The notes beneath the pieces are model-generated. The model ran no database searches and was not told the origin of the DNA. It saw nothing but the letters and a program-made list of their open reading frames with translations. The position numbers and the translations under genes were made by a program. This document shows positions 8,328 to 25,903 of a DNA stretch of 64,000 nt, one piece after another; position 1 is the first letter of the stretch; each line of letters starts with the position of its first letter. Origin of the DNA: an uncultured Gemmatimonadales bacterium (GTDB lineage: Bacteria; Gemmatimonadota; Gemmatimonadetes; Gemmatimonadales; Gemmatimonadaceae); the NCBI GenBank assembly GCA_963707505.1, contig CAVPQB010000004.1, forward strand, positions 160,001-224,000, in the 5' to 3' direction.

Positions 8328-9361
8328 TCATGCTGTGATCTTCGCGCTGTCGCCCGCAGTGACTTCGTAAGTAGAGCCGGATACCATGGTCGCCGCATCG
8401 GAGGCAAGAAAGACAACTACAGGAGCGATGTCGTTCGGATCGATCCACGGCACGCCCAACGGGCTCGATTTTGCGAGTTCTTCACGCGCTGACTGTTCGT
8501 CCTTTGTGACATCACCGGTTGGCGTTTTGCCGCTCGTTTGCAAGGCTTGCGCATAGCGCTCCTCATGACGCGTGAGAGGCGTATCAACCAGTCCCGGAAC
8601 CAGGCAGTTCACGGTAATGCCACTTTTGCCCAGCTCGAGCGCGGCGGACTTCATCAGACCAATGAGTCCCCACTTCGACGCAGAGTACGCGCTGGCGTTG
8701 AAAGTCCCGTGCTGCCCCTGTGTGGACGTGGTGATGATCATGCGGCCCCTCTTGCGCCGCACCATTGCGGGCCCGAAGGCGCGCAAGACATTAGCTGTGC
8801 CGGTGAGGTTGGTGTCGATGGTGATGTGCCAGTCGGCGTCCTCCATCTCCATCAGGGGGTGGAACTGCTGAATTCCGGCGTTGGCGAACAGGATGTCGAC
8901 CGCGCCAAACGAGGACTCGATACGCTCCGCAGCCGCGCGCAGCGCCGGAAGGTTTCGCTGGTCGACAATATGCGACTGCCACTTGACCCCAAGCGTCTCG
9001 ACCAGTCTGCCGGTCTCCGCAAGGTCCTGCGGTGTCGAAGGCGTGACACCGGAGCGGGGATCGACGACTGCGCAGATGTCGAGCCCCGCTACGTTTGCCC
9101 CTGCGCCGGCGAGGGCAAGCGCGGCTGCACGGCCGATGCCACGCGCCGCACCGGTGACGACGGCGGTCTTGCCTTTCAGCGCGGTTGAAAGAAAGGTGTT
9201 GGTGGAGGGCTTATTGGCGGGACTGCCTGGCATCGGGTTCTCCGGGGACAACGACTGGAATGCGTGCGCCACAGTCGAGTTGCTGGATAGGAGCAGGGCC
9301 GCTGAGGCCTGCGTGACAAAAGCTCGACGAGTAAGCTCCGGTTCTTGGAGGGGTCTCGCAT
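8328..9361 (-). CDS. SDR family oxidoreductase, probably Tat-signal bearing (apparent frameshift right after ATG 9361)
   Basis: GKTAVVTGAARGIG, FANAGI, YSASKWG, VNCLVPGLVDTP; in-frame upstream ELTRRAFVTQASAALLLSS. Confidence 0.9.
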
Positions 9362-9487
9362 TTTGACCTACCGACGTCGGGTGAACTACAAGATGGGAAC
9401 AGCCTTATCTGGAATGGTGTTGATCTCAGCTTCAGACACGTGGGCGTGGGCCACGGCGACCTGCATCGGCACCGCGCGCATTGGTGA

Positions 9488-9677
9488 GGAAGTCCATAGT
9501 CCGCGCATCTTCTGTACCGTTGAAGACGATCATGCGGACTTGTCGTGAGATCCAGAACTGCCGCTCGCTTGCGTTTGAGTGCCAGTGCAGCTCGCGAATC
9601 GCTTCCGGCTTCAACGTGACGATGCCGCCCGAAGTCTTTGGCGAAGCGGGGAAGTTCTTCACGTCGATGATCTTCAC
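9488..9677 (-). pseudogene. Oxalate decarboxylase-like bicupin fragment
   Basis: KIIDVKNFPAS...VTLKPEAIRELHWHSNASERQFWISRQVRMIVF...ARTMDF matches the OxdC second cupin motif RELHWHxNxxEW; truncated at both ends. Confidence 0.8.
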
Positions 9678-10066
9678 GTTGCATTTTCCGCTGGAACGTG
9701 CGTCGCATCGTGCTTGTGTGGAATGTGTGTGGTGACCTGGTGGGTCCGCGGAGGATCACCACCGAGCGCTCGGCGCGGCGATATCTGCGTGACGGTACTC
9801 GACATTCCATGTGGCGCTCGCCGCGCTGGCGTGGTGCGGTCGAATACCGGACGCGGCCGTTCACACATTCCCGCATTCACATCTTTGGCTTATCCGCCGC
9901 GAGCGCTTCCGTATTTATCCCCAGCCAGACATCGGGCGCCGCGGATTGCGTGGGCACGACCTTGCTTACACCGCGAATCGTGAGCACCCCCCCAGCCGCG
10001 GCAGGCGCGGGAAATGCAGGCGGTCGTTTGACAGTGCATCCGTCACTTCATCAACGGAAGGAAACC

Positions 10067-10504
10067 GTGGCGAACGAAGAACGCAACATGCAGCTCATGC
10101 AGACCCTGGACGATGCTTGGAACGCGCAGGACATGGGTACCTTCGACAAGCGCCATCGTAAGGAAGTTGTGGTGCGCTGGCCGGGAAAAACGCCCACCAA
10201 CGGAATCGATGCGCACCACCAGGAGGCGATCGATTTCTTCAAGACATTTCCGGATCAGCACCTCGTCAATCGCCCGTATCGTGTCTTTTTCGCGAACGGC
10301 GACTGGACTTGTTCGATCGCTCACTTCACCGGCACCATGACGGGCCCAATGCAAGGGGCCGACGGCAAAGTGATTCCACCAACCGGCAAGGGATTCGACG
10401 TGGACTTCTGCACCGTGGCTCACTGGGACAAGGATGGTCAGATCATCGAAGAGAACCTCTTCTACGACCTCGTCACCTTCATGCATCAGATCGGACTCGG
10501 ATAA
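10067..10504 (+). CDS. SnoaL-like ester cyclase / polyketide cyclase family protein
   Basis: GTG start after GGAAGGA; LDDAWNAQD, FFKTFPDQHL, FTGTMTGPM, IPPTGKGFDVDFCTVAHW, IIEENLFYD. Confidence 0.88.
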   Translation: MANEERNMQLMQTLDDAWNAQDMGTFDKRHRKEVVVRWPGKTPTNGIDAHHQEAIDFFKTFPDQHLVNRPYRVFFANGDWTCSIAHFTGTMTGPMQGADGKVIPPTGKGFDVDFCTVAHWDKDGQIIEENLFYDLVTFMHQIGLG

Positions 10505-10547
10505 GAATCCGATCGCGCAAGGGCGCGGTAACCGGGGGATTGCACAA

Positions 10548-11008
10548 CATGACATCGCGTCCAGAATCCGTAGCTGTGGTACCACGCACAATGCCGCGGA
10601 TCGCCACCGTCGACGAGCGTTACGAATCTTACAACGTCGAGGTCGCGGAAGTCATCGCCGGCTAATGGGCACGACGTTGTTCACGCTGGTCCGTCTCGGG
10701 AGGGGCTGCATCTCCATGCACCGTGCGTGCGCGGGCACCCGGGCGGCGTAACACTGCTGGCGATTAACAACAGCCAAACGCAGGCCTCGTCGCTTCAGAT
10801 CCCAAGCGCTGCGGAGCGTTATACCTTGAGCGCGCAGCAGCTCGAGGCCACCGACATCGAACTCAATGGACATGAACTGACGTTGGGAGCTAACGATGCG
10901 TTGCCGGAGCTTCAAGGGACGAGTGTTCCGGCCGGAACCGTAACGCTCGCACCGGCTACCAGCACGTTCCTCACGATTGCGGATGCACGAGACGCGAGTT
11001 GCCGATGA
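10548..11008 (+). pseudogene. Internally deleted paralogue of the GH79-like gene at 12790..14484
   Basis: PRTMPRIATVDERYESYNVEVAEVIAG is fused directly to RRLMGTT...RGHPGGVTLLAINNS...DASCR; the middle ~1.1 kb is absent. Confidence 0.9.
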
Positions 11009-11069
11009 CACTGCAGAGTGACGTCCCGGTTCCATGCAGGTTTCGATGCTCGACGTGAACATCGAGAAT

Positions 11070-12536
11070 TCAGGCCTGCGTCTTGGTTCCCTTGGGCACT
11101 GTGAGCATGATCGAGACTATGGACACCACGACCATCAGCACGTTGAAGCCGAGCGCAATGATGGCGGCCTCCCGGACGGCAAGGTTGTCCTGGCGGCCGA
11201 GGAAGGTGATTACGCCGTCGAGCCAGTTCGCGCTCGCATTGTTGCCGCTCAGCGCAGTGAAGATCGCAGCGGAAATCGCCACGCCGAAGGCGGCGCCAAG
11301 CGACGACGCCATCTTGTAGATGCCCGAACCAGAACCCGTCTGTGTAGCTGGCAGGTTCGATAACGCGGCATCGGTTGAAGGGGTCGCGTAGAACGCCAGA
11401 CCGACACCGAACAGCGTATAACCGACGCTCGCGAGGATCTTGTAGTCCGACAGCCGCAGGTTGGCGGGTGACACCAACAGGATTGCCAGGCCCGTGATCA
11501 GGCAGCCCCAGATCATCGGTTTGCGCGGCCCGAAGCGTTGCAGAAGTTTCTCGCCCACTCGAATGAAGGCGATGATGGCGATCGCGTAACCGAGCGTCAA
11601 AAAGCCGGCCTGTTGGGCGTTCATGTTGCCGCCGAGCTGCACCAGTTGTAGCGACACGATCTGCGTACCGGCGGTCCCGTTGATCAGGAAGTTGGAGATC
11701 GTCGCGCCGGTGAATGTTGTGTTCCTGAACAGGCTGAAGTCGAAGAACGCATTGGACGCTCTGTTCTCGATGCGGAAAAACAGCCAGCCGAACACTACCG
11801 TTACCGCGAGGAGAACCAGACCAGTCGGACTGCTCCAGCCCAGCTTGTTGCCCTGCGTCACAAGTACTTCCAGTGCGACCATCGTGATCATGAACGCAAG
11901 CACGCCGGACAAATCGAACTTGTACGCGCCCGTTGTTTCCGCCTTGCTCTCGGGGGTGCCACGCATCATCCACAGTCCGAGCACGCTCACAGCGATGGCG
12001 ACCCAGAAGATGGAGCGCCAGCCAAAGTTCTGCGACATCAGGCCACCGACCAGCGAGCACAGGCCCGAACCGCCCCAGGAGCCGATCGACCACATGCTGA
12101 TGGCGCGCTGGCGCTCGGGACCGTCCCAAAAAGCTTTTACCAGCGCCAGACTGGCCGGCATGATGCAGGCGGCTGACAGCCCTTGCAACGCACGGCCCAC
12201 AAGCAGGACTGCTGTTGCCAACTGACCCTGCGGCGTGATGGCCACAAGCAGCGAGCCGGCGATGCTCAAGTAAAAGCCAATGCGAGTGACCTTCACCCGA
12301 CCAACCCGATCGGCCAACCCACCCATCACGACGATGAAGATGCCCGAGAACAGCGAGGTAATGGCCACCGCAACGTTCATCATGCTCGCATTCACGCCAA
12401 GGTCGCGGCTCATGTCAGGCGCGATGTTGAGCGTCGTCTGGGCAAACAGCCAGAACGCGACGACACCCATGATGATGCCGAACAGCAGTCGATCGTTGCC
12501 CTTGTATGGCATCGTCGATTGAGCAACGGTATTCAT
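11070..12536 (-). CDS. MFS transporter, DHA2 (NorB/NorC-like) family
   Basis: LFGIIMGVVAFWLFAQTTLNIAP, GGLADRVGRVK, GRALQGLSAACIMPASLAL, YATPSTDAAL, GIYKMASSLG; GGAG RBS before ATG 12536. Confidence 0.92.
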   Translation of the reverse strand: MNTVAQSTMPYKGNDRLLFGIIMGVVAFWLFAQTTLNIAPDMSRDLGVNASMMNVAVAITSLFSGIFIVVMGGLADRVGRVKVTRIGFYLSIAGSLLVAITPQGQLATAVLLVGRALQGLSAACIMPASLALVKAFWDGPERQRAISMWSIGSWGGSGLCSLVGGLMSQNFGWRSIFWVAIAVSVLGLWMMRGTPESKAETTGAYKFDLSGVLAFMITMVALEVLVTQGNKLGWSSPTGLVLLAVTVVFGWLFFRIENRASNAFFDFSLFRNTTFTGATISNFLINGTAGTQIVSLQLVQLGGNMNAQQAGFLTLGYAIAIIAFIRVGEKLLQRFGPRKPMIWGCLITGLAILLVSPANLRLSDYKILASVGYTLFGVGLAFYATPSTDAALSNLPATQTGSGSGIYKMASSLGAAFGVAISAAIFTALSGNNASANWLDGVITFLGRQDNLAVREAAIIALGFNVLMVVVSIVSIMLTVPKGTKTQA

Positions 12537-12789
12537 ACGGGTCTCCATTGCGACGGCGCTGGCTTGACAGCTCCGTCGCCGAGAAAACAACCGGCGATGT
12601 GAGCTGCTTCCTGGCCTGACGGAGTATCTACAATCGCTGCGCGCCCAGCAAGTGTATGGATGGGACGACGACCGCTTTTGCGCCGGCAGCAGCAAGTGGG
12701 ATCACCTCTTGCAGTGACGTGCGCCAGGCGAGTACCGCGCACTGTGATTTTGCCTTTGAGTCCGGTCGCCGCCCATCTCTGGAAGGGAA

Positions 12790-14484
12790 TTGATGATGGT
12801 GCGCAACAACAGGCCCGTCGCACTTGGTGCGGTAGCGGTCGCGGTAGCGGTAGTACTAGTAGTAGTGTCGTTGGCCGCTGCGATGCGCAGCACGGCGCGA
12901 ACTTCCGCGGTGCCAGTTGCGGTATCCGTCTCGCTGACACCACGCACCATGCCACGCATTGCGACGGTCGATGAGCGTTATCAATCGTACAACGTTGAGA
13001 TGGCCGAGGTGATCGGCGGCAACTTCTGGAAGCCGTACGACGCGCAGCGCACGACCTCGAAGGCCAGTGGACCTCCGGCAGAAGCCATGTCGGGTAGCAC
13101 TGCGCCTCAGGTGGTAGGCGAGGATACGAGCATGTTCCAGGCGCGCGCACCGATCGACCTGTCGAACGCGCGGTTGCGTAAGCTGACAGCGGCGCTCGGG
13201 CCAGCCTACATGCGCACGAGCGGAACGTGGGCGAACTCCGTCTACTTCGACGATGCCGACAGTCCCGCACCGAAGACCGCACCGAAGACCGCACCGAAAG
13301 GGTTCATGGGCGTCCTGACACGCCCGGAATGGAAGGGCGTCGTCGACTTCACGCACGCCGTGAATGCCAACCTCGTCACGTCCTTCACGATCAGCGCGGG
13401 CGTCCGCGACACGGCAGGCGTGTGGACGCCGATAGAGGCCCGGAAGTTCGTCGCGTACACGACAGCCATCGGCGGACGGATTGCCGGAGCAGAATTCTTC
13501 AATGAGCCTGACATGCCGGTGTACGGCGGCGCGCCGGCTGGCTACACCGCCGCGGATTATGCGCGGGACTTCGCCATCTTCCGCCGATTCGCGACGCAGG
13601 CCGCTCCCGACATGCGGATCGCCGGTCCGGGCTCCGTTGGCGAAGGCGTGTTGATGCCTCTGATGGGTGGAGACACGGCGGCCATAGGAGTGGTAAAGAC
13701 AGCGGATATGCTCTCCGCGTCACCGCGGCCCATCTTCGACATCTTTTCCTATCATTTCTACGGTGCGGCGTCTATCCGATGCGCCTCGATGGGCGCGGGT
13801 GCGCAGACCACTCCTGATTCCGCGCTGTCGGAAAGCTGGCTCGCGCGCACCGACCGGAGCTACGCCTATTACGTGTCAGGTATCCGAGATCGATTCGAGC
13901 CGAACAGCAAACGCGTGTGGATCACCGAGACCGCGGATGCCGCGTGTGGCGGTAATCCGTGGGCGAAGACGTTCCTGGATTCGTTCCGTTATGTAGACCA
14001 GATGGGGCGCCTGGCCAGGAAGGGTGTCACGGTCATTTTCCACAACACGCTCGCCTCCAGCGAATACGGGCTGCTCGATCAGAAGACCTTTGAGCCGCGT
14101 CCCAATTACTGGGCGGGGTTACTGTGGCGTAGACTGATGGGCACCACAGTGCTCGAATCAGGCGTCCCGATCACATTGGGGCATCACGTCTACGCCCAGT
14201 GCATGCGCGGTCATCCCGGTGGCGTTACGCTGCTCGCGATCAACAACAGTCGGACGCAATCCGCGTCGATTGAGCTTCCGATCGCGGCGAGCCGTTACAC
14301 ACTTACCGCCGCGACGCTGCAGGATACGCACGTCCAACTGAATGGGCGTGAGCTCGCGCTGGGACCCAATGATGCGCTGCCAGGTTTGCAAGGCGTGCGT
14401 ATCGCCGCGGGACGCGCGGTGCTCGCGCCGGTGAGCATCACCTTTCTCACAATGGCAGACGCTGGCAATGCAAGCTGTCGTTGA
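12790..14484 (+). CDS. Secreted GH79-like (heparanase / beta-glucuronidase-like) glycoside hydrolase
   Basis: Signal peptide; LGPAYMRTSGT, EFFNEP (acid/base), SYHFY, VWITETADA (nucleophile), YGLLD, PRPNYW. Confidence 0.82.
   Translation: MMMVRNNRPVALGAVAVAVAVVLVVVSLAAAMRSTARTSAVPVAVSVSLTPRTMPRIATVDERYQSYNVEMAEVIGGNFWKPYDAQRTTSKASGPPAEAMSGSTAPQVVGEDTSMFQARAPIDLSNARLRKLTAALGPAYMRTSGTWANSVYFDDADSPAPKTAPKTAPKGFMGVLTRPEWKGVVDFTHAVNANLVTSFTISAGVRDTAGVWTPIEARKFVAYTTAIGGRIAGAEFFNEPDMPVYGGAPAGYTAADYARDFAIFRRFATQAAPDMRIAGPGSVGEGVLMPLMGGDTAAIGVVKTADMLSASPRPIFDIFSYHFYGAASIRCASMGAGAQTTPDSALSESWLARTDRSYAYYVSGIRDRFEPNSKRVWITETADAACGGNPWAKTFLDSFRYVDQMGRLARKGVTVIFHNTLASSEYGLLDQKTFEPRPNYWAGLLWRRLMGTTVLESGVPITLGHHVYAQCMRGHPGGVTLLAINNSRTQSASIELPIAASRYTLTAATLQDTHVQLNGRELALGPNDALPGLQGVRIAAGRAVLAPVSITFLTMADAGNASCR
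13267..13299 (+). repeat. 12-bp in-frame tandem repeat (APKT x2.75)
   Basis: gcaccgaagacc gcaccgaagacc gcaccgaaa. Confidence 0.85.
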
Positions 14485-16351: not shown

Positions 16352-16367
16352 CAGCCCCTGCGTTCAA
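16352..16367 (+). promoter_or_regulatory. CAGCCnnnnCGTTCAA motif, putative AraC-family site upstream of the GNAT operon
   Basis: cagcccctgcgttcaa, with a partial repeat cgtttaa 20 bp upstream; same motif at 19784, 20280 and 20301. Confidence 0.6.
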
Positions 16368-16442
16368 GCAAGGGGCACCGGGCATTCGGTAATGTGCAGC
16401 TGCGATAACACATGTCGCGTCACGCACACCCAGGATACCGCC

Positions 16443-17099
16443 ATGCCGTTCGCCCTCCGACACCGTAGCGACCCGACTCCGCGTCTTGAGTCGCTACCGA
16501 CATTTTCCGTCCGCCGCGAGGAGGACGCGTCCGTCATGGCCGCGCTGCAGCAACGCGATGAAGCTGACATGGTGCGCCGCTTGGATACCGGACACCGCGC
16601 CTATGTCGCGATGTGCGATGGTCAACGCGCCGCGTGGGGATGGGTTGCGACCCGCTTCGCCGAAATTGGCGAGGTCGGTGCCTCGTTCACTCTCCCTGCC
16701 GGCGAACAATACCTGTGGAACTTCGTTACGCTCGCCGACTATCGCGGGCGAGGTATCTACCCACGGCTGCTCGATGCGATCGTGCGTGCGGAGTCGCGCG
16801 AAGCCGCGCGATTCTGGATCGCATATGCGCCGGAGAACCACGCGTCGGGAGCGGGCATCCGGAAGGCGGGCTTCGTCGATCTCGCCGAGTTGTCGTTCGA
16901 TGCAAGCGGCCGGCCCGCGCTCACACCGCTATTGCCTGGTGGTGCCCGGGTCGCGTCGCGAGTGCTCGGACTGCCCGAGAAGCGGGAGTCGCTCGCGCCG
17001 TGCTGGCGCTGCGTGCGCGCGGGTCGCGGGAGTATGTCCTGCGCACCTGGGCAGTGCCGATGCGACTATCAGCGGCCTGCATCGGGATGTGCATCGTGA
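16443..17099 (+). CDS. GNAT family N-acetyltransferase with Cys-rich C-terminal tail
   Basis: YLWNFVTLADYRGRGIY, ENHASGAGIRKAGF; tail PCWRC...SC...CRC...GC. Confidence 0.85.
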   Translation: MPFALRHRSDPTPRLESLPTFSVRREEDASVMAALQQRDEADMVRRLDTGHRAYVAMCDGQRAAWGWVATRFAEIGEVGASFTLPAGEQYLWNFVTLADYRGRGIYPRLLDAIVRAESREAARFWIAYAPENHASGAGIRKAGFVDLAELSFDASGRPALTPLLPGGARVASRVLGLPEKRESLAPCWRCVRAGRGSMSCAPGQCRCDYQRPASGCAS

Positions 17100-17202: not shown

Positions 17203-17718
17203 ATGCAGATGATGAGCGAAGTTTCGACGGCAACCGCGTACGCAACCGCGGTGACGACAATACTGCTCGGCACAGCGGCTGGCGGGACCTTTACCGTTCT
17301 GGCGTACAGTGTTCCCAAGTACGCGAAGCCGTTCCTCTCGGCCGCCCTTTTCGTCACGGCGATGCTCTACGTCGGTCTGGCGCTCGCCGGTGGCGCTGGT
17401 CCCGCGTGGCTCACGGTGGAGATCGTCGGCGTTCTCGTGTACGGCAGTGCATCGCTCCGCGGACTGCGCGGGTCGGCGTGGTGGATCGTCGCCGGCTGGG
17501 CGCTCCATCCCATCTGGGACATCGCACATCACGTCGCACACACTGGTCACGCCTTCGTTCCCTCGTGGTACGCGATGGCATGTCTGGGCTTTGACATAGC
17601 CGTTGCAGCCGTGATCGCGTCACGAACGTGGCATGGCGCCACCGCACTGTCGCAGTCTCTTCCGCGATGGGTCCCGCAGTCACTTCTACAGTCTCTTCCA
17701 CAATGGGTTCGGCTATGA
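17203..17718 (+). CDS. Membrane protein (DUF6010-like)
   Basis: WLTVEIVGV...WWIVAGWALHPIWDIAHH...VPSWYAMACLGFD; GGAG RBS before ATG 17203. Confidence 0.75.
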   Translation: MQMMSEVSTATAYATAVTTILLGTAAGGTFTVLAYSVPKYAKPFLSAALFVTAMLYVGLALAGGAGPAWLTVEIVGVLVYGSASLRGLRGSAWWIVAGWALHPIWDIAHHVAHTGHAFVPSWYAMACLGFDIAVAAVIASRTWHGATALSQSLPRWVPQSLLQSLPQWVRL

Positions 17719-18830
17719 CCGCGATGCGTCCGACGGTGCTATCCACAGACGCGCGTGCAATGCGTGTCGAGCGGTACGACACCGTTGTCATCGGCGGAAG
17801 CCAGGCCGGCCTCGCCGTCGGGTATCATCTCGCGCGCCGTGATGTCGACTTCGTGATTCTCGATGCCGAGCGACGCGTGGGCGACGCATGGCGCAAACGA
17901 TGGGACTCGCTCCGCCTATTCACGCCGGCCGCGTACAGCGGGCTCCCTGGCATGGCGTTCCCAGCGCCGCCATCGCATTTGCCCGACAAGGATGAGGTGG
18001 CCGACTACCTCGAGCGCTACGCCGAGCGGTTCGATCTGCCGATCCGGTGCGCGATGCGCGTTGATTCGCTCGCCTCCGATGGCGAGTGGTATACCGTCCA
18101 CGCCGGCGACGTACGAATCGAGGCCGCAAATGTTATCGTCGCGACCGGTCCGCTTCGGTCGCCGCGTATTCCCTCGATCGGCGCCTCGCTCGCGCCCGAT
18201 ATTCTTCAGATCCACTCGAGCGAATACCGCAATCCGTTCGAACTTCCTGACGGGCCCGTGCTGGTCGTGGGAGCCGGGAACTCGGGCGCGCAGGTCGCCC
18301 TCGAGCTTGCGAGGTTCCGGAAGGTGTGGCTCGCTGGCTCGTCCACCGGCTACATCCCGCGCAGAATTCTCGGCCGCGATGTGTTCTCGTGGATCTGGCC
18401 CTTGATGTCGCGCGCGACGGCCGATACGCGGATTGGAAGACGATTGCGCCAACGCGCCACACGCGGCGGCGACGCGCTAATCGGAATTCCGGAGCGTACG
18501 CTCGTCGATGCGGGCATCGTCCGCCTAGGTCGCGTCACGGAACAGCGCGGTGGTCTCCCGCTCTGCAATGGCACCGTCGTGCAACCGAGCGTCATCGTCT
18601 GGTGCACAGGATTCGCGTCGGACTACAGATGGATCGCGCTCCCCGTCACCGACGAGCGCGGGCTTCCGCTCCACCATCGCGGCGCCGCGACCGGGCTGCC
18701 GGGTCTCTATTTCGTCGGCCTTCGCTTCCAGCATCGCATGACGTCCTCCCTGCTCGGCGGCGTCGGCGAGGACGCGGCATACATCGCGGACATCGTGGCC
18801 CGCCGTGCGGAAGGGGTGCGGTTCGCCTGA
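17715..18830 (+). CDS. Flavin-containing monooxygenase-like NAD(P)/FAD oxidoreductase (CzcO/ArsO-like)
   Basis: VIGGSQAG, WRKRWDSLRLFTP, HSSEYRNP, VVGAGNSG, VWCTGF, GLYFVGL; ATGA overlap with the upstream gene. Confidence 0.92.
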   Translation: MTAMRPTVLSTDARAMRVERYDTVVIGGSQAGLAVGYHLARRDVDFVILDAERRVGDAWRKRWDSLRLFTPAAYSGLPGMAFPAPPSHLPDKDEVADYLERYAERFDLPIRCAMRVDSLASDGEWYTVHAGDVRIEAANVIVATGPLRSPRIPSIGASLAPDILQIHSSEYRNPFELPDGPVLVVGAGNSGAQVALELARFRKVWLAGSSTGYIPRRILGRDVFSWIWPLMSRATADTRIGRRLRQRATRGGDALIGIPERTLVDAGIVRLGRVTEQRGGLPLCNGTVVQPSVIVWCTGFASDYRWIALPVTDERGLPLHHRGAATGLPGLYFVGLRFQHRMTSSLLGGVGEDAAYIADIVARRAEGVRFA

Positions 18831-18900
18831 GGTAGCTCCGCGTTTTGCGAGAATCGCCTTCTGGCGGTAAACTCCGGGTGACTGCCACCATCGGGTGACC

Positions 18901-19704
18901 ATGAGTAGCAAGGATAGCAAGAGCACCACCAGCGTGACCGGCGGCATCGGGCATTTCGTGTCGTGGGATGGCGGCTGCGTCTTGATCGGACGCAACGTCG
19001 GCGTCATCCCGCCGCACGCACACTACGCGATTCAGATCGCGTTCGGCACGGAGCACGGCGTGCGCTTTCGCTCGCAGGAGAGTGATGCGTGGACCGAGTA
19101 CGGCGGTGCGATCATTCCCTCGCGCCACCCGCACTCCATGGACGCGACGCACGTGCGCGCGAACGCCGTGTTGTTCGTCGAGCCGGAGACGCGCGAGGGA
19201 CGCGCGTTGCGAGAGCGCTACCTGCAGGGCGGCATCGCTGCGCTACCGGACGACCTGCTCGCCGATACCCGTCGGGCATTGTTCTCCGCGTGGGAAGAGC
19301 AGCGGAGCAGGCACGCTGTCGCTGACGTGGCGCAGCATGTGATTCGTACACTCGCGGGAGGCGTCGGTCCGACCGTCACATCGGACAAACGCATTCTGCG
19401 CGCGATTACTTACATCAAAGCCCATATCAACGGTCCGATCACGCTCGACGAAGTAGCGCGCGAGGCGTGCCTGTCGCCGAGCCGCTTCCGTCATCTCTTT
19501 GTCGAAGAGACGGGGACGGCATTCCGCCCGTACGTCCTCTGGCGCCGCTTTCTGCGTGTGTGGGAGTTGTTGACGGCTGGAAGCTCGCTGTCGACCGCAG
19601 CGCATGCGGCGGGCTTCGCCGACGCCGCGCATCTCGCGCGGACGTCGCGGACCATGTTCGGTTTTCCGCCGTCGGCCATTCAGCTCGCAGCGCCACTCGA
19701 TTAG
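18901..19704 (+). CDS. AraC family transcriptional regulator
   Basis: N-terminal PHAHYAIQI cupin-like motif; C-terminal TLDEVAREACLSPSRFRHLF...AAHAAGFADAAHLARTSRTMFG. Confidence 0.95.
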   Translation: MSSKDSKSTTSVTGGIGHFVSWDGGCVLIGRNVGVIPPHAHYAIQIAFGTEHGVRFRSQESDAWTEYGGAIIPSRHPHSMDATHVRANAVLFVEPETREGRALRERYLQGGIAALPDDLLADTRRALFSAWEEQRSRHAVADVAQHVIRTLAGGVGPTVTSDKRILRAITYIKAHINGPITLDEVAREACLSPSRFRHLFVEETGTAFRPYVLWRRFLRVWELLTAGSSLSTAAHAAGFADAAHLARTSRTMFGFPPSAIQLAAPLD

Positions 19705-19783: not shown

Positions 19784-19799
19784 CAGCCCTTTCGTTCAA
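19784..19799 (+). promoter_or_regulatory. CAGCCnnnnCGTTCAA motif upstream of the Cys-rich peptide gene
   Basis: cagccctttcgttcaa, identical to 20280..20295. Confidence 0.65.
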
Positions 19800-19923
19800 T
19801 CCCGTGAGGCACATGAGGAGATAACGTGAAGCTTACGACGACCGCTGTCCGCAACTCCGCGGGCCGGTACCCGGTTCAACGGGACGTCGCGACGCAAACA
19901 CTGAATTCTCCGAGGAATCTCTC

Positions 19924-20127
19924 ATGACTCGCTCTGCCACCACCCGCTGCTCCTGCTCGCCATGTTCCGCAGGTGCCTGCACTTGTACCTCCTGCCACAC
20001 GACGGCCGAACGCGCCGACGCGGCAAGCACCGATGTTGCACGCACCGGTGTTGCACGCTGCTGCTGCGGCAGTGCGTGCGGCTGCGATGTTTGCGTGTGC
20101 CCGCCGAACTGCGGCTGCGCGAAGTAA
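19924..20127 (+). CDS. Cys-rich small protein, metallothionein-like (67 aa, 15 Cys)
   Basis: GAGGA RBS; CSCSPC..CTCTSCH - Cys-free spacer - CCC...CGC..CVC...CGC; followed by a strong hairpin. Confidence 0.75.
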   Translation: MTRSATTRCSCSPCSAGACTCTSCHTTAERADAASTDVARTGVARCCCGSACGCDVCVCPPNCGCAK

Positions 20128-20171: not shown

Positions 20172-20203
20172 ACGGGGCGCGGTTCTTGAGAACCGCGCCC
20201 CGT
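20172..20203. terminator. GC-rich hairpin after the Cys-rich peptide gene
   Basis: acggggcgcggttct-tg-agaaccgcgccccgt, a perfect 15-bp inverted repeat. Confidence 0.7.
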
Positions 20204-20279: not shown

Positions 20280-20316
20280 CAGCCCTTTCGTTCAACAGCA
20301 CAGCCGCTCCGTTCAA
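20280..20316 (+). promoter_or_regulatory. Tandem CAGCCnnnnCGTTCAA sites with 21-bp period upstream of the YtkA/FixH-like gene
   Basis: cagccctttcgttcaa (20280-20295) and cagccgctccgttcaa (20301-20316). Confidence 0.7.
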
Positions 20317-20404
20317 TTCCGAGCCTCCGAGGCGGGATAATCTTGAATCACGACCGCGCCGCGTGGCGCTTGTCGATTCGACCATCCCTAATCGAGATCC
20401 TCCA

Positions 20405-20868
20405 ATGCGCTTCTCCGTCGCAAAGTTTCGCCGCCGTACGCTCTTCACGCGAGCGTTCGCCTCGATTGTCGCAGCCAGTGCCGTTGCTGTGCTCGCGGCT
20501 GCATGCTCTTCGCCCGCGCCCCGCAGGATCTGGATTACTCGCGCACGCGCACCAGCGAGGGCGGCCACTACGTCGCTACGATTCACCCGCAGGGCGATTC
20601 GATCCCGCAGGGCCGGCTGCATCGCTGGACGCTCCACCTCGAGACTGCGGCGGGCGTACCGGTGGACAGCGCGGTGCTCACCGTCGATGGCGGGATGCCG
20701 CAGCACGGCCACGGCCTGCCGACGAAGCCCCGCGTCACGCGTGCGCTCGGCAACGGCGACCACCTCGTCGAAGGAATGAAGTTCAACATGGGCGGCTGGT
20801 GGGTCGTGAAGTTCCGCGTCGCCGCGGCTCAGGGCACCGACTCCGTCGTATTCAACCTCAAGCTCTGA
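20405..20868 (+). CDS. YtkA/FixH-like lipoprotein (frameshift near 20495-20520)
   Basis: Lipoprotein-type signal ending in Cys; [14 protein letters not shown]...[12 protein letters not shown] motif in the second frame. Confidence 0.8.
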
Positions 20869-22145
20869 TGGACGCACGTCGCATCGCTCGCAAGCTGAGC
20901 ACGCGTTCGAGGACGGTTGTTTGGCCGGTCGCCATCGGCGCTGCGTTCGGGCTGACGTCGACGGCGGCGCTGAGCGGTATCGTTGCCGTTCGCCCGCAGT
21001 GGACGCCGACAGAGCGCGCGACACTGCGCTCGCTCGCTCTCTCGAGCCTCGGCCCGCTGCCGCCGGATCCGTCGAACGCGGCGGGTGACGACCCCCGCGC
21101 CGCGGCGCTCGGACGCGCGCTCTTCTTCGACACACGGCTGAGCGGCAACGGCAAGGTGTCGTGCGCGACGTGCCATGTACCGACGCAGGACTTCCAGGAC
21201 GGCAAGCCACTCGCTCACGGCGTCGGCACCACGGCGCGCCGCACGATGCCGATCGCCGGCACCGCACACAGTGCGTGGTTCTTCTGGGACGGCCGCGCCG
21301 ACAGCCAGTGGGCGCAGGCGCTCGGCCCGCTGGAGAGTGCGGTCGAGCACGGCGGCACGCGTGCGCAGTACGCGCACGTGATCGCGAAGCATTACCGCGC
21401 CGAGTACGAAGCCGTGTTCGGCCGGCTGCCATCACTCGACGACGTTCCGGCACAGGCCGGACCGGTTGCCGACGAGTCGGCGCGCGTGGCTGGCGTGGCA
21501 TCGCGCCGGCGCGGCAGCAGGACGTCAGCCGCGTGTACGCCAACATCGGCAAGGCCATCGCCGCGTACGAGCGGCGCATCACGTTCGCGCCGTCGCGGTT
21601 CGACCGTTACGTCGACGCCGAGCTCGCCGGTCGACCGAACACGCCTGCATCGGCTCTCACTGATGACGAAGCGGCCGGACTGCGGCTCTTCATCGGCAAG
21701 GCGAACTGCGTCAACTGTCACAACGGGCCCCGTTCACCGATGACCACTTTCACAACACCGGCGTACCCGTCTCACGGGTCGTTCTCGCCACCGACAGCGG
21801 CCGCGCGACGGGCGTTCGGCAGGCGCTCGCCGGCGAGTTCAGCTGCACGAGCCGGTACAGCGACGCGAAGCCCGAGGACTGCGACGAGCTGCGCTTCGCG
21901 GTCACCGAGGGCACTGAGCTCGTGCGCGCATACAAGACGCCGTCGCTGCGCAACGTCGCGGAGCGCGCACCGTACATGCACGCCGGCCAGCTCGCGACGC
22001 TCACGACGTGGTATCGCACTACGACCGCGCCGCCCCCGCACCGTTCGGCCACAGCGAGTTGAAGCCGCTGCATCTCTCGTCGAAGGAACGACGTCAGATC
22101 GAAGCGTTCCTGCGCACACTATCGGCGCCTGTGGTGCGCCCCTGA
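20868..22145 (+). CDS. Di-heme cytochrome c peroxidase / MauG-family protein (several frameshifts)
   Basis: [64 protein letters not shown] spread across three frames; TGATG coupling to the upstream gene. Confidence 0.9.
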
Positions 22146-22494: not shown

Positions 22495-23120
22495 GGGGCG
22501 TGTATCCACTCACCCATTTCGAGATCCCGCTTTCGACGGGTGGCCGAACTATACGAACCATCAAAGGTGAGCCTCGCGGGCCAGTGTATGGCAGCTCGTC
22601 GAGTGCGAGAGCTCAGCGATGATCGAGGAGGAGCCGGTGAGGCGCAAACGATGGCTCTGAACTCAACGCCGTGGGCGATTCGGCAGAAGTGTACTACGCA
22701 CACCGCGTGGGAACCATCACGGTGCGTGTCCGTCGCTAATAATTCGGCGTGCTTGGCCGGGAGGGCATCTCGCGACCCAACGTTGGATACATGGAGGTCC
22801 ACCCCTACACTTGCAGTTGCAGTATAGAAAGAGCGATATCAAGCAGGCGTTCACGATACCATGCGCGCTGAATATTCCTGAATATGCGCGCGCGCCATCC
22901 TGGAAGGGACAGAATGGCCGTATAGTGGTCGCGCGCCGCTGATTGCGCCCCATGCTTTTTGAAAGGGATCGCATCTTGCTCTATGCGACAGTGGCGTTGC
23001 GGCCGCTCTCTTCTTCACTGTCATTGCGTGAGCTAGCTCTCCCGTTTCTCAGTGCAGGCAGGAAGTCTTGGATCCAGCGCGCGATCTGATAGACGAACTC
23101 TTACTGTGGGAGCACTAGGA

Positions 23121-23981
23121 ATGTCGAGCACTGAACCGAAGCACTTCGCTCTTGGAAGAGATCATTGCGGCCGGGCACTCAGCATCATCAAGTCGAGGCG
23201 TACCGTGCGACTGGCAGCGTCGTTCGCTGCTCTCGCAGCGGCATTCCTCGGCACCTCGCAGCTCACGGCTCAGGGAACCCTTGGCACGGCCCAGGCGTTC
23301 GGCGTCCTCGGGGCGTCGACGGTTACGAACACGGGCCCAACAACGATCACTGGCGACCTCGGAGTCTCGCCGGGAACCGCGATAACGGGACAGGGAAGCA
23401 TCACGCTCAACGGTGCGCTGCATGATGCTGATGCTGTTGCGCTGCAGGCGCAGCACGACGCGCGCACCGCGTACAACAACCTTGCTGCTCAAACGCCTAC
23501 TCAAGACCTGACGGGTCATGACCTTGGCGGAATGACGCTGACGCCTGGCGTGTATTTCTTCTCGTCGTCGGCACAGCTGACCGGAAATCTATTTCTCAAT
23601 TTTCTGGGCAATCCGAACTCGACGTTCGTGTTCCAGATCGGGAGCGCACTCACAACCGCCAGCGGATCCTCAGTGTCGGAGACGACGGGTGCGCCGGGCG
23701 CAAACGTGTTCTGGCAGGTCGGGAGTTCCGCGACCCTGGGGACAGGCACACAATTTCAGGGGACTATCATAGCAGACCAGAGTGTCACACTGACCACCGG
23801 CGCTTCCATCTCATGCGGCAGAGCGATCGCGTTGACCGGTGCGGTGACAATGGACAACAACGTCATCTCGAATGAATGCGGTGGCGCAACCAGCACCGTC
23901 CCCGAGCCGAGCTCGATGGCGTTACTCGGAACCGGGATGCTGGGACTGTTCCCAATGCTTCGCCGCCGCAGGAACGGCTAG
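23121..23981 (+). CDS. Ice-binding-like DUF3494 protein with PEP-CTERM sorting signal (start uncertain)
   Basis: [87 protein letters not shown]. Confidence 0.92.
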
Positions 23982-24056
23982 TATCCAGAAAGAGTCTCGG
24001 ACTCACGCGCCGGGCGGACAGTTGCCCGCAACCAATCCTCGCAATCGTGCGATGCT

Positions 24057-24126
24057 TGGTTGCGCCACCGTGCCGAGCCCGGTGATCGATGTTCCGGGCG
24101 AGATACCCAGGTCGCCAATTGATCAT
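24057..24126 (-). pseudogene. Inverted DUF3494 gene relic
   Basis: Minus strand encodes GDLGISPGTSITGLGTV, matching [17 protein letters not shown] of the adjacent gene. Confidence 0.65.
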
Positions 24127-24349
24127 CGCTGCGAGCTTCATTTCGCATCGTTCCACCGGCGATAACCACTGCGCGTACAACCGCGAGTTACCAGGAGTCT
24201 GCTTTTCTTGTTGCAATCTGCACGGGGCAGAGTCCACATCATGACGGGGATCACACTCACGCATCCGTTGAAGAATACAGCGTGAAGATCACCGCGAGCC
24301 GGGGCGCATCGGCACTTTCTCGCGTTCACTTGCACAACGGCTCCAACAC

Positions 24350-25903
24350 ATGAAGAAGATTTTAGTTAGTAGCCGCGGAACGCGGCTGCTGGTTCGCAGT
24401 GCGCGCATCGCACGAACAGTCGCGGCAATTGGTTTCGCCGGGCTATTTGCTACAGCGTGCGACGTCCACGGCATCAGCAATCCGGGCACGCTCTCATCCA
24501 TCAGCGTCGCGCCCAACCCCCAGACGCTTGCAGCCGGCAGCACGCAGCAATTCACGGCGGTCGGTAGGGACTATTCTGGCGCGAAGGTAGCAATTACGCC
24601 TACCTGGTCCGTCGTCACTGGTGGTGGTACCATCAGCAGCACCGGGGTGTTTACGGCATCCGCAACGCCCGGTACCTACACCAACACTGTGATGGCGACC
24701 AGCGGAAACATGACCAGCACTGCGACGATCATCGTCACCGCTGGTCCGCTGGCAACAATCGTCGTCTCGCCAAATCCGCAGACGATGACAGTGCGCGGCA
24801 CGCAGCAGTTCACCGCCGTTGGCAGAGATTCAGCCGGCAACTCAGTTGCACTCACGCCGACCTGGTCAGTAGCCGCAGGTGGCGGGGCGATAAGCGCGAC
24901 CGGTCTCTTCACTGCCGGCTCGACGCCGGGCACCTACACCAACACGATCAAGGCGACGAGCGGTACGGTTTCGGCGACGGCCACTGTCGTGGTAATGTCG
25001 ACGCCGCCGGCCCCACCGCCACTTGCGACGATCACGGTAACACCGAATCCTGATACCACGCAGGTCGGCGCCACGCAGCAGTTCACGGCAGTTGGCCGCG
25101 ACGGCAACGGAAACATCTCTGCAATTACGCCGATATGGTCTGTAGTGAATGGCGGCGGCAGCATTGATTCGACCGGTCGCTTCACCGCGGGCTCCACGGC
25201 GGGGACGTTCACCAACACAGTGAAGGCGACGAGCGGTACAATTTCGGGAACGGCGACTGTAACAGTACTGGCGACAGTCCCACCTCCGTCGCCATCGCTC
25301 ATCAATCTTGGCACAGCCGCGCCGAATGGAATCATGGCCGGCACCGCGGTGACATGCGTCAGCCTCGGTACCATCAACGCTGACGTGAGCATCAGCCCGG
25401 GTAACACGATCACCGGCTTCGGACCATGCGTCATCACCGGCGTACAACATCTTGGTGATGCAGTTGCTGCGCAGGCGCAGATCGACCTGACAAGGGCATA
25501 CAACACGCTTGCCGGCCTCCCGTGCCCACCCGCCAACGCAATCGTGGCGAACCTCGGTGGCACGACCAAATCGGCCGGTGTCTACTGCACGGCCAGCGGG
25601 ATCGGCGTAACCGGCACACTGATACTCGATGGCGGCGGCGATCCGAACGCGACCTTCGTCTTCCAGGCAGGTAGCGGACTTACCACTGCCGGTGACGTAG
25701 TGCTCATCAACGGTGCTCAGGCCAAGAACGTGTACTGGCAGGTCGGTACCTCGGCTACCATCGGTACCGCATCGCACTGGCAGGGCAACATCGTCGCCTA
25801 CACGAGCATCACACTAGTGGATAACGCGACGCTGCTCGGCCGTGCTCTGGCACGCAACGGCGCAGTATCGCTCGGAACCAACAACGTCATCACGCTTCCG
25901 TAA
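24350..25903 (+). CDS. Lipoprotein with three Ig-like repeats and a C-terminal DUF3494 ice-binding-like domain
   Basis: LFATAC lipobox; 3x [IxVxPNP..TQQFTAVGRD..TPxWSV..GGG...GTxTNT..ATSG]; FVFQAGSGLTT, NVYWQVGTSATIG, GRALARNGAVSL. Confidence 0.9.
   Translation: MKKILVSSRGTRLLVRSARIARTVAAIGFAGLFATACDVHGISNPGTLSSISVAPNPQTLAAGSTQQFTAVGRDYSGAKVAITPTWSVVTGGGTISSTGVFTASATPGTYTNTVMATSGNMTSTATIIVTAGPLATIVVSPNPQTMTVRGTQQFTAVGRDSAGNSVALTPTWSVAAGGGAISATGLFTAGSTPGTYTNTIKATSGTVSATATVVVMSTPPAPPPLATITVTPNPDTTQVGATQQFTAVGRDGNGNISAITPIWSVVNGGGSIDSTGRFTAGSTAGTFTNTVKATSGTISGTATVTVLATVPPPSPSLINLGTAAPNGIMAGTAVTCVSLGTINADVSISPGNTITGFGPCVITGVQHLGDAVAAQAQIDLTRAYNTLAGLPCPPANAIVANLGGTTKSAGVYCTASGIGVTGTLILDGGGDPNATFVFQAGSGLTTAGDVVLINGAQAKNVYWQVGTSATIGTASHWQGNIVAYTSITLVDNATLLGRALARNGAVSLGTNNVITLP

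Follow-up and report, generated by a model that had tools for sequence, protein, structure and literature searches.

The peptide gene and its flanking signals

A short cysteine-rich open reading frame (ORF) lies between an AraC-family regulator gene and a YtkA-like gene in the window, the whole 64,000-nt stretch of DNA that was analysed, and it raises two questions: whether it is a gene, and whether its product is a metallothionein. The frame occupies positions 19924–20127 of the forward strand and encodes 67 amino acids (AA) followed by a TAA stop codon. Its translation contains 15 Cys and one His and is devoid of Phe, Tyr, Trp, Leu, and Ile as well as of a signal peptide. The Cys residues are located at AA 9, 11, 14, 19, 21, and 24, with His25 next, and at AA 46, 47, 48, 52, 54, 57, 59, 63, and 65. 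They form an N-terminal cluster of six Cys and the His (CxCxxCx4CxCxxCH; 19948–19998, forward strand) and a C-terminal cluster of nine Cys (CCCGxxCxCxxCxCxPxCGC; 20059–20118, forward strand), separated by 20 residues without Cys. The composition and the two-cluster, 6+9 layout with a spacer of about 20 AA given in the preliminary description of this DNA were both borne out by the translation. In the available text of two papers (PMC13578184, PMC7558416), metallothioneins are defined as Cys-rich proteins of low mass with CxC, CxxC, or CC motifs and few or no aromatic residues. The traits of this class (small size, 22% Cys, CxC/CxxC/CC motifs, and no F/W/Y) are present in the peptide.

The ribosome-binding site GAGGA could be located at 19912–19916 of the forward strand with the ATG 7 nt further on, which agrees with the good site noted earlier. 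The downstream hairpin of the same description stood in part: a strong 14-bp stem is formed at 20172–20203 (forward strand, z = -3.7), yet there is no U-tract, terminator prediction did not report it, and the homologue L007 lacks it; the hairpin was rejected as a defining feature. Composition by itself is no proof of a gene, because the 3.66-Mb genome (83% complete) contains 13 Met-started ORFs with a Cys content of 15% or more and no fewer than 8 Cys; the peptide ORF is distinguished from the others because it is conserved in its own reading frame.

Conservation of the peptide gene

Judged by its conservation, the peptide ORF is a real, conserved gene. A protein search across 401 genomes of the order revealed one clear homologue besides that of the own genome (L007; 55 AA, 14 Cys), which occupies the same slot between the AraC and YtkA genes with the same boxes, and 14 further marginal matches (E-values 0.002–0.01). 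A pattern scan of the phylum was positive in 2 of 401 genomes. The search was also anchored on the AraC gene, by which no Cys query was used and a Cys-biased search was avoided. An AraC orthologue was present in 57 of 401 genomes of the family, and among the best 30 of these 57 loci, some of which stop at contig edges, the peptide was found within 1.5 kb of the AraC orthologue in five, the own locus counted. Among 22 wider AraC regions (20 chosen by score and extent of contig, and two earlier ones) it was found in six. Membership of the peptide in the cluster is optional, and most AraC-orthologue loci examined lack it.

A more distant AraC (36–58% identical) could be observed in 14 of 301 genomes of a sister family, and seven of these 14 loci carried the promoter box together with a Cys-rich peptide, one of which was cut to 32 AA. 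The AraC was further found on three plasmid records and the peptide on two of them. Plasmid pMTS1 of Cupriavidus sp. P-10 (NZ_AP025172.1) encodes a peptide of 63 AA and 14 Cys beside the AraC, and plasmid 2 of Gemmatirosa kalamazoonensis KBS708 encodes one of 55 AA, which adds no extra case because it is identical to the L007 peptide. The Polaromonas plasmid pPNAP03 carries the AraC, the peroxidase, a DUF3703-YtkA fusion, and the box, with no peptide. Homologues that keep the Cys pattern were found, then, in L007, at AraC-anchored loci, in the sister family, and on plasmids, their hosts being soil bacteria and a Cupriavidus, and the synteny with AraC, YtkA-like, and peroxidase genes, which the preliminary description had proposed as a check, proved to be real.

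The start codon, the ribosome-binding site, and the stop codon are kept across the homologues, with GAGG 6–8 nt upstream of the ATG in all seven shown. Substitutions were concentrated at third codon positions, with 10/17/40 by position, and the pN/pS was 0.18 in the Cys frame vs 0.6–2.9 in the other frames, for a set that includes rows gathered by a Cys query. Among four relatives taken from AraC loci, the differences by codon position were 9/10/24. In the dN/dS comparison suggested earlier, the low pN/pS of the Cys frame speaks for the gene, and the changed codons of these four relatives, 14 synonymous and 16 non-synonymous, speak against.

The N-terminal cluster CxCxxCx(1-4)CxC was present in 13 of the 15 box-driven peptides listed. 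These peptides are 49–122 AA long with 12–32 Cys, and the length of the linker and the number of Cys repeats vary, as expected of modular metal binding. The Cys-free spacer is shorter or missing in many relatives, and the first Cys of the aligned members is preceded by 3–13 variable polar residues with no conserved leader or signal sequence. Expanded members were observed at L232 (reverse strand, 2708; 122 AA, 32 Cys), L226 (6619–6903, forward; 94 AA, 22 Cys), and L026 (2457–2702, forward; 81 AA, 19 Cys), which are composed of tandem repeats of a six-residue CxCGxx unit.

The promoter box and the AraC-family regulator

The conserved upstream motif mentioned in the preliminary description corresponds to the box CAGCCnnnnCGTTCAA at 19784–19799 of the forward strand, a promoter box predicted to be bound by the neighbouring AraC. 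It is one of four exact copies in the window (16352, 19784, 20280, and 20301) against 0.03 expected; none of 100 shuffled windows reached four copies, and the genome has no exact copy outside this cluster. A predicted -10 hexamer, TAACGT, follows at 19822–19827 (forward strand), 22 nt downstream of the box. Across 26 regions, 64 boxes were collected, of which 46 have no second box after them; a TAnnnT hexamer was found 21–22 nt past the box in 30 of the 46, at offset 27 in two, and at offsets 15–20 and 23–26 in none. At this distance the box would abut the -35 position. Two tandem boxes spaced 21 nt apart (20280–20316, forward strand) precede the YtkA-like gene, with a -10 hexamer at 20338–20343. 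A box abutting the -35 position and a 21-nt direct repeat presumably fit activation of the AraC/XylS type.

Besides the peptide, the genes preceded by the box encode the YtkA-like protein, the peroxidase, a GNAT acetyltransferase, and the flavoprotein. All 15 box-driven peptides listed start 54–137 nt behind the box, a distance which shows frequency, not necessity, because a box was required by the script that produced the list. The peptide of L227 lies approximately 7 kb from the AraC gene and has its own box, and the box accompanies the AraC subfamily down to about 40% identity.

The regulator gene itself (18895–19704, forward strand) was assigned to the AraC family by PF12833 and PF00165. 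Residues H41, H43, H80, and M82 were invariant in 25 of 25 orthologues, and the spacing and motif of the His residues suggest a cupin-type metal site in the N-terminal domain; the AlphaFold model, produced from a single sequence, had a pLDDT of 40. The AraC is predicted to bind the box. The TAG stop codon of the AraC gene forms the first three bases of the peptide-driving box in L234, L235, L237, L238, L240, and L246, a very compact regulator-target unit.

Neighbouring genes

The genes on the forward strand are ordered as GNAT with a six-Cys tail, DUF6010, flavin oxidoreductase, AraC, peptide, YtkA-like, and di-haem peroxidase. The GNAT unit (16352–17099, forward strand) was identified by its domain match and its box (16352–16367) before the gene (16392–17099). 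Its C-terminal tail reads CxxC-x9-C-x4-CxC-x8-C, the first five Cys being present in 18 of 18 orthologues and the sixth in 17 of 17 aligned, and the protein is possibly a metal-gated acetyltransferase. An Atlas search with this Cys tail returned no usable match. The flavin-dependent oxidoreductase (17628–18830, forward strand, start uncertain) had its best matches, below threshold, in the MSMEG_0569 family and ArsO.

The YtkA-like predicted lipoprotein (20405–20868, forward strand; PF13115) contains a conserved M-P-x-H-G-H motif, and M65, H68, H70, and M96 were kept in 20 of 20 sequences. It is followed by a di-haem cytochrome c peroxidase (20868–22127, forward strand, end approximate; PF03150), which is MauG/MbnH-like below the family cut-offs. 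Both form a conserved pair: of 25 other regions, 20 have the YtkA-like gene and 18 the peroxidase gene. The pair resembles the MbnP/MbnH copper-protein pairs. YtkA domains contribute to copper delivery in Bacillus subtilis according to the accessible text of PMC13344008.

Further along the window (23052–25903, reverse strand), a 309-AA protein of the ice-binding-like kind (PF11999), which terminates in a PEP-CTERM-like sequence, is encoded beside a 517-AA ORF with an apparently similar domain at its end. At L214, which belongs to an uncultured relative, a 1557-AA ORF (8764–13434, forward strand) with a Tc toxin TcA C-terminal (TcB-binding) domain adjoins the peptide gene.

Database searches and comparison with known metallothioneins

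The peptide and 11 relatives produced no Pfam match and no NCBIfam match, and PF02069, PF02068, and PF00131 were silent at the locus at E ≤ 10. PF01439 was silent there at the same threshold as well, which is uninformative, since its control also matched nowhere. None of nine exact peptides was present in a collection of 15 billion proteins, and phmmer against 1.84 billion representatives returned two matches, the best being a called ORF of 156 AA that ends in the peptide and apparently has a wrong start; the second was rejected as an unrelated repeat protein. These two results bear out the expectation that annotation pipelines would miss the peptide, and the placement outside the known bacterial metallothionein families is supported by the profile searches, in which no clear match to a known metallothionein model, whether of SmtA/BmtA, plants, or animals, was obtained.

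A word-index protein search gave no candidate, and alignment-based searching gave 2 and then 12 proteins at permissive E-values, none with a more informative name than 'hypothetical protein'. Of 600 stretches matching the pattern in GTDB, none was confirmed by tblastn, while a looser scan gave at least 120 stretches; among those listed, 16 were judged by eye to be small family-like peptides and three were ambiguous, the remainder being low-complexity or unrelated. A tblastn search of plasmids with a Roseibium peptide returned no match. The family profile matched only two metallothioneins in the PDB at E ≤ 10 (E 0.03 and 2.2, both weak). The better one, wheat Ec-1, was also the best named Atlas cluster (0.85, recognition below threshold), and the nearest named look-alikes were this protein and one listed as metallothionein MT_nc, both weak. 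The AlphaFold model of the peptide had a pLDDT of 52, and Foldseek found no match for it.

The peptide resembles plant Ec-1 (wheat, PDB 2KAK, type 4) in its CxCGxxCxCxxCxC motif and in clusters split by Cys-free linkers, but differs in having no PF02068 (Metallothio_PEC) match, 6+9 Cys in 67 AA, and a promoter and regulator of bacterial type. A likeness this weak is not enough to demonstrate common descent. Of the plant-type layout proposed earlier, the spacer between Cys clusters holds, but the likeness is weak and confined to the Cys motif of the Ec type.

Like SmtA/BmtA of cyanobacteria and Pseudomonas, it is small, cytoplasmic, and Cys-rich, carries CxCxxC in its N-terminal part, and is encoded next to a regulator gene; unlike them, it has no match to PF02069 (Metallothio_Pro), for which the control was positive in Synechococcus. 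A zinc-finger fold and a divergently encoded SmtB repressor are described for SmtA in the available parts of PMC7558416 and PMC7387436. In contrast to this SmtB/ArsR arrangement of the cyanobacterial members, the gene upstream of the present peptide encodes a co-oriented AraC, a predicted activator, and the peptide has 15 Cys and no aromatics. MymT of Mycobacterium tuberculosis is likewise a small Cys-rich ORF with a multicopper oxidase in its regulon, but is a 4.9-kDa protein under the CsoR-type repressor RicR, whereas the promoter of the present peptide carries the AraC-linked box. The CsoR homologue of this genome is encoded on another contig than the peptide. The Cys pattern of MymT presumably differs from that of the peptide. 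That MymT was also overlooked by annotation is reported in the accessible text of PMC7558416 and PMC10141476.

The bacterial metallothioneins described in the available portions of the literature searched are the SmtA/BmtA type, MymT, and a 2026 thioredoxin fusion. The same portions contain no description of this peptide family or of an AraC-controlled metallothionein, and members may be present in published sequence lists. None of five motifs occurs in the four text supplements of PMC11705764, whose sequence lists may be in figures or on GitHub.

Metal context of the regulon

A multicopper oxidase gene lies directly behind the box in L229 and L247 and is the last of a box-led run of three genes in L251. 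RND pumps with CusA/CzcA as the best family (partial and below cut-off) are located downstream of the peptide in L246 and L249; this family also covers Zn/Cd/Co. Copper-homeostasis genes were found within 15 kb in 4 of 22 regions compared to a crude expectation of 0.6–0.8, for which the control was one genome with queries drawn from the same loci and in which kin are not independent; a fifth region encodes a NirK-like enzyme. The peptide was present in none of the four copper-flanked regions, and the six peptide-bearing regions of the 22 contained no Pfam copper gene, with only a partial RND match at the edge of L212. The window contains no copper pump, CsoR, or oxidase gene; the copper ATPase, CsoR, and multicopper oxidases of the genome are on another contig, which has no exact box.

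The box also drives a MacB/FtsX ABC permease, a DJ-1-like protein, and outer-membrane-like proteins, and because such genes are not metal-related, the inducer may be a non-metal. A predicted outer-membrane-like protein of approximately 240 AA without a Pfam domain follows the box in L004, L226, L227, L228, and L232. For the inducer, these contexts would give copper about an even chance, Zn/Cd or mixed soft metals a clearly smaller one, and a non-metal signal the smallest, though a real one. As the metal of the peptide itself, copper is slightly favoured over Zn/Cd, a close rival, on the company kept within the regulon.

Proposed function and alternative explanations

The peptide is likely a metallothionein of an undescribed bacterial family within a probably metal-responsive AraC regulon. 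With good though not full confidence, copper being slightly favoured, its synthesis is predicted to be induced through the box by the adjacent AraC, which would sense metal. Metal entering the cell would be taken up by the AraC at its His site, and the loaded regulator would bind the box overlapping the -35 region and activate the box promoters. The peptide would then fold round soft metal ions in two thiolate clusters, protect the cytoplasm, and, by lowering free metal, damp its own activator. By analogy with the plant Ec and beta-type domains, clusters of 6+9 Cys would accommodate about 2+3 divalent ions, or a larger number of Cu(I). The envelope-side members, i.e., the YtkA-like lipoprotein and the di-haem enzyme, may handle the metal or its redox damage, and the regulon would also supply the Cys-tailed GNAT and the flavoprotein, joined in some genomes by a multicopper oxidase or a metal-efflux RND system.

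It is less probable, and on balance unlikely, that the peptide is a thiol/redox buffer or a stationary-phase metal store within a regulon answering an organic or oxidative signal, with metal binding being incidental. The core enzymes of the regulon are redox enzymes (flavoprotein and di-haem peroxidase), neighbouring genes include those for an ergothioneine-type methyltransferase, an FGE-sulfatase-domain protein, OsmC, thioredoxin, and rhodanese, and a Pseudomonas metallothionein is a stationary-phase protein that is not needed to resist metals, as stated in the available text of PMC7387436. However, multicopper oxidases stand under the box in three genomes and CusA/CzcA-like pumps come after the peptide in two, the constant CxC/CxxC spacing is more suggestive of a cluster geometry than of a bulk thiol, and look-alike peptides pair with metal-sensing sigma factors.

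Decay of the cluster in this genome, with the ORF as a silent remnant or a chance Cys-rich frame, is very unlikely. GC-rich DNA yields other Cys-rich ORFs, and frameshifts interrupt the YtkA-like gene (near 20500) and, three times, the peroxidase gene (near 21491, 21733, and 22000). The ORF, ribosome-binding site, box, and -10 hexamer are nevertheless intact and conserved. A single low-depth contig of short reads matches the DNA over 169 nt except for one additional base at the YtkA break, which makes assembly indels the likelier cause, and the frameshifts of both genes are probably assembly errors. The peptide gene had no near-identical cover in the DNA read runs searched. Least probable of all is a RiPP precursor (methanobactin- or bufferin-like) matured to a metallophore by the flavin monooxygenase, the GNAT, and the MbnH-like enzyme, for although enzymes of three such kinds (flavin oxidoreductase, acetyltransferase, MauG/MbnH-like) are encoded in the cluster, and methanobactin operons contain MbnF and MbnH, the enzymes occur without the peptide at 25 of 30 loci and the peptide without the enzymes in L234, L237, L238, L240, and L246, the members (49–122 AA) have neither a leader nor a signal sequence in common, and searches of the 83%-complete genome and of the flanking proteins scanned gave no PF05114 (MbnB/DUF692).

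Together with the His-bearing AraC, the box and the -10 geometry delimit a regulon that can be put to the test. The module is present in two cultured strains (KBS708 plasmid 2 and P-10 pMTS1), in which the inducer, the metal preference, and the stoichiometry could be measured directly.

Look-alike peptides linked to other regulators

A stricter DNA pattern of the C-terminal cluster matched 37 metagenome loci, 36 of which encode small peptides and one of which is a stretch within a long ORF. An ECF sigma factor gene follows in 23 of the 37, five are in an AraC cluster with the box, and nine have neither. Among 30 distinct sequences, 29 stop within 8 residues past the motif and 27 have at least four more Cys just upstream, both features being outside the search pattern. 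Three translated ECFs (Roseibium, Acidobacteriaceae, and Sericytochromatia) contain a linker CxC and a Cys-rich tail, and the 23 ECF genes were assigned by similarity to these three. The two features define CorE-like factors, which respond to Cu or to Cd/Zn, in the accessible text of PMC8999054 and PMC6851896. The likeness to CorE/CorE2 systems (Myxococcus xanthus, former ECF44) lies in peptides of other phyla with the same C-terminal Cys pattern preceding CorE-like genes; unlike those, the window peptide is under the AraC box, and two queries of the genome returned no CorE-like gene. The word metallothionein was absent from the main text of the CorE papers searched.

The peptide of L195 has the 6+9 Cys layout of the window peptide. 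When the N-terminal halves of AraC- and CorE-linked peptides, which lie outside the pattern, were compared, no more than 3 of 10 scored above 95% of 500 shuffled versions, so that a single family is not established. In L096 (1753–3964; Bacteroidia), a peptide of 47 AA and 12 Cys is encoded between a multicopper oxidase and an AraC whose N-terminus weakly matches HMA, and this AraC is a third type of regulator for such peptides.

We tentatively propose, at somewhat under an even chance, that modular, eukaryote-like two-cluster metallothioneins with the Ec motif are widespread and unannotated in Gemmatimonadota, Proteobacteria, Acidobacteriota, and Bacteroidota under at least two unrelated metal sensors, and that the AraC subfamily is a new copper-sensing activator with a defined box and regulon. 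If this is true, the regulon would combine a metallothionein, a YtkA-like chaperone with a di-haem enzyme, a multicopper oxidase, and metal efflux. The peptide family recurs across phyla with a Cys layout unlike the described ones and escapes Pfam, NCBIfam, and gene callers alike; therefore, bacterial metal sequestration is probably under-counted.

Peptides with neither an AraC nor a CorE neighbour were observed at L177, L181, L188, L191, L192, L194, L200, and L202, and a conserved HTH-like ORF of 91 AA directly follows the peptide in L177, L194, L200, and L202. The Cys pattern at L173 (26–1771, reverse strand) forms a linker within a long ORF, which we take to be a YbeY-type N-terminus joined to an apolipoprotein N-acyltransferase.
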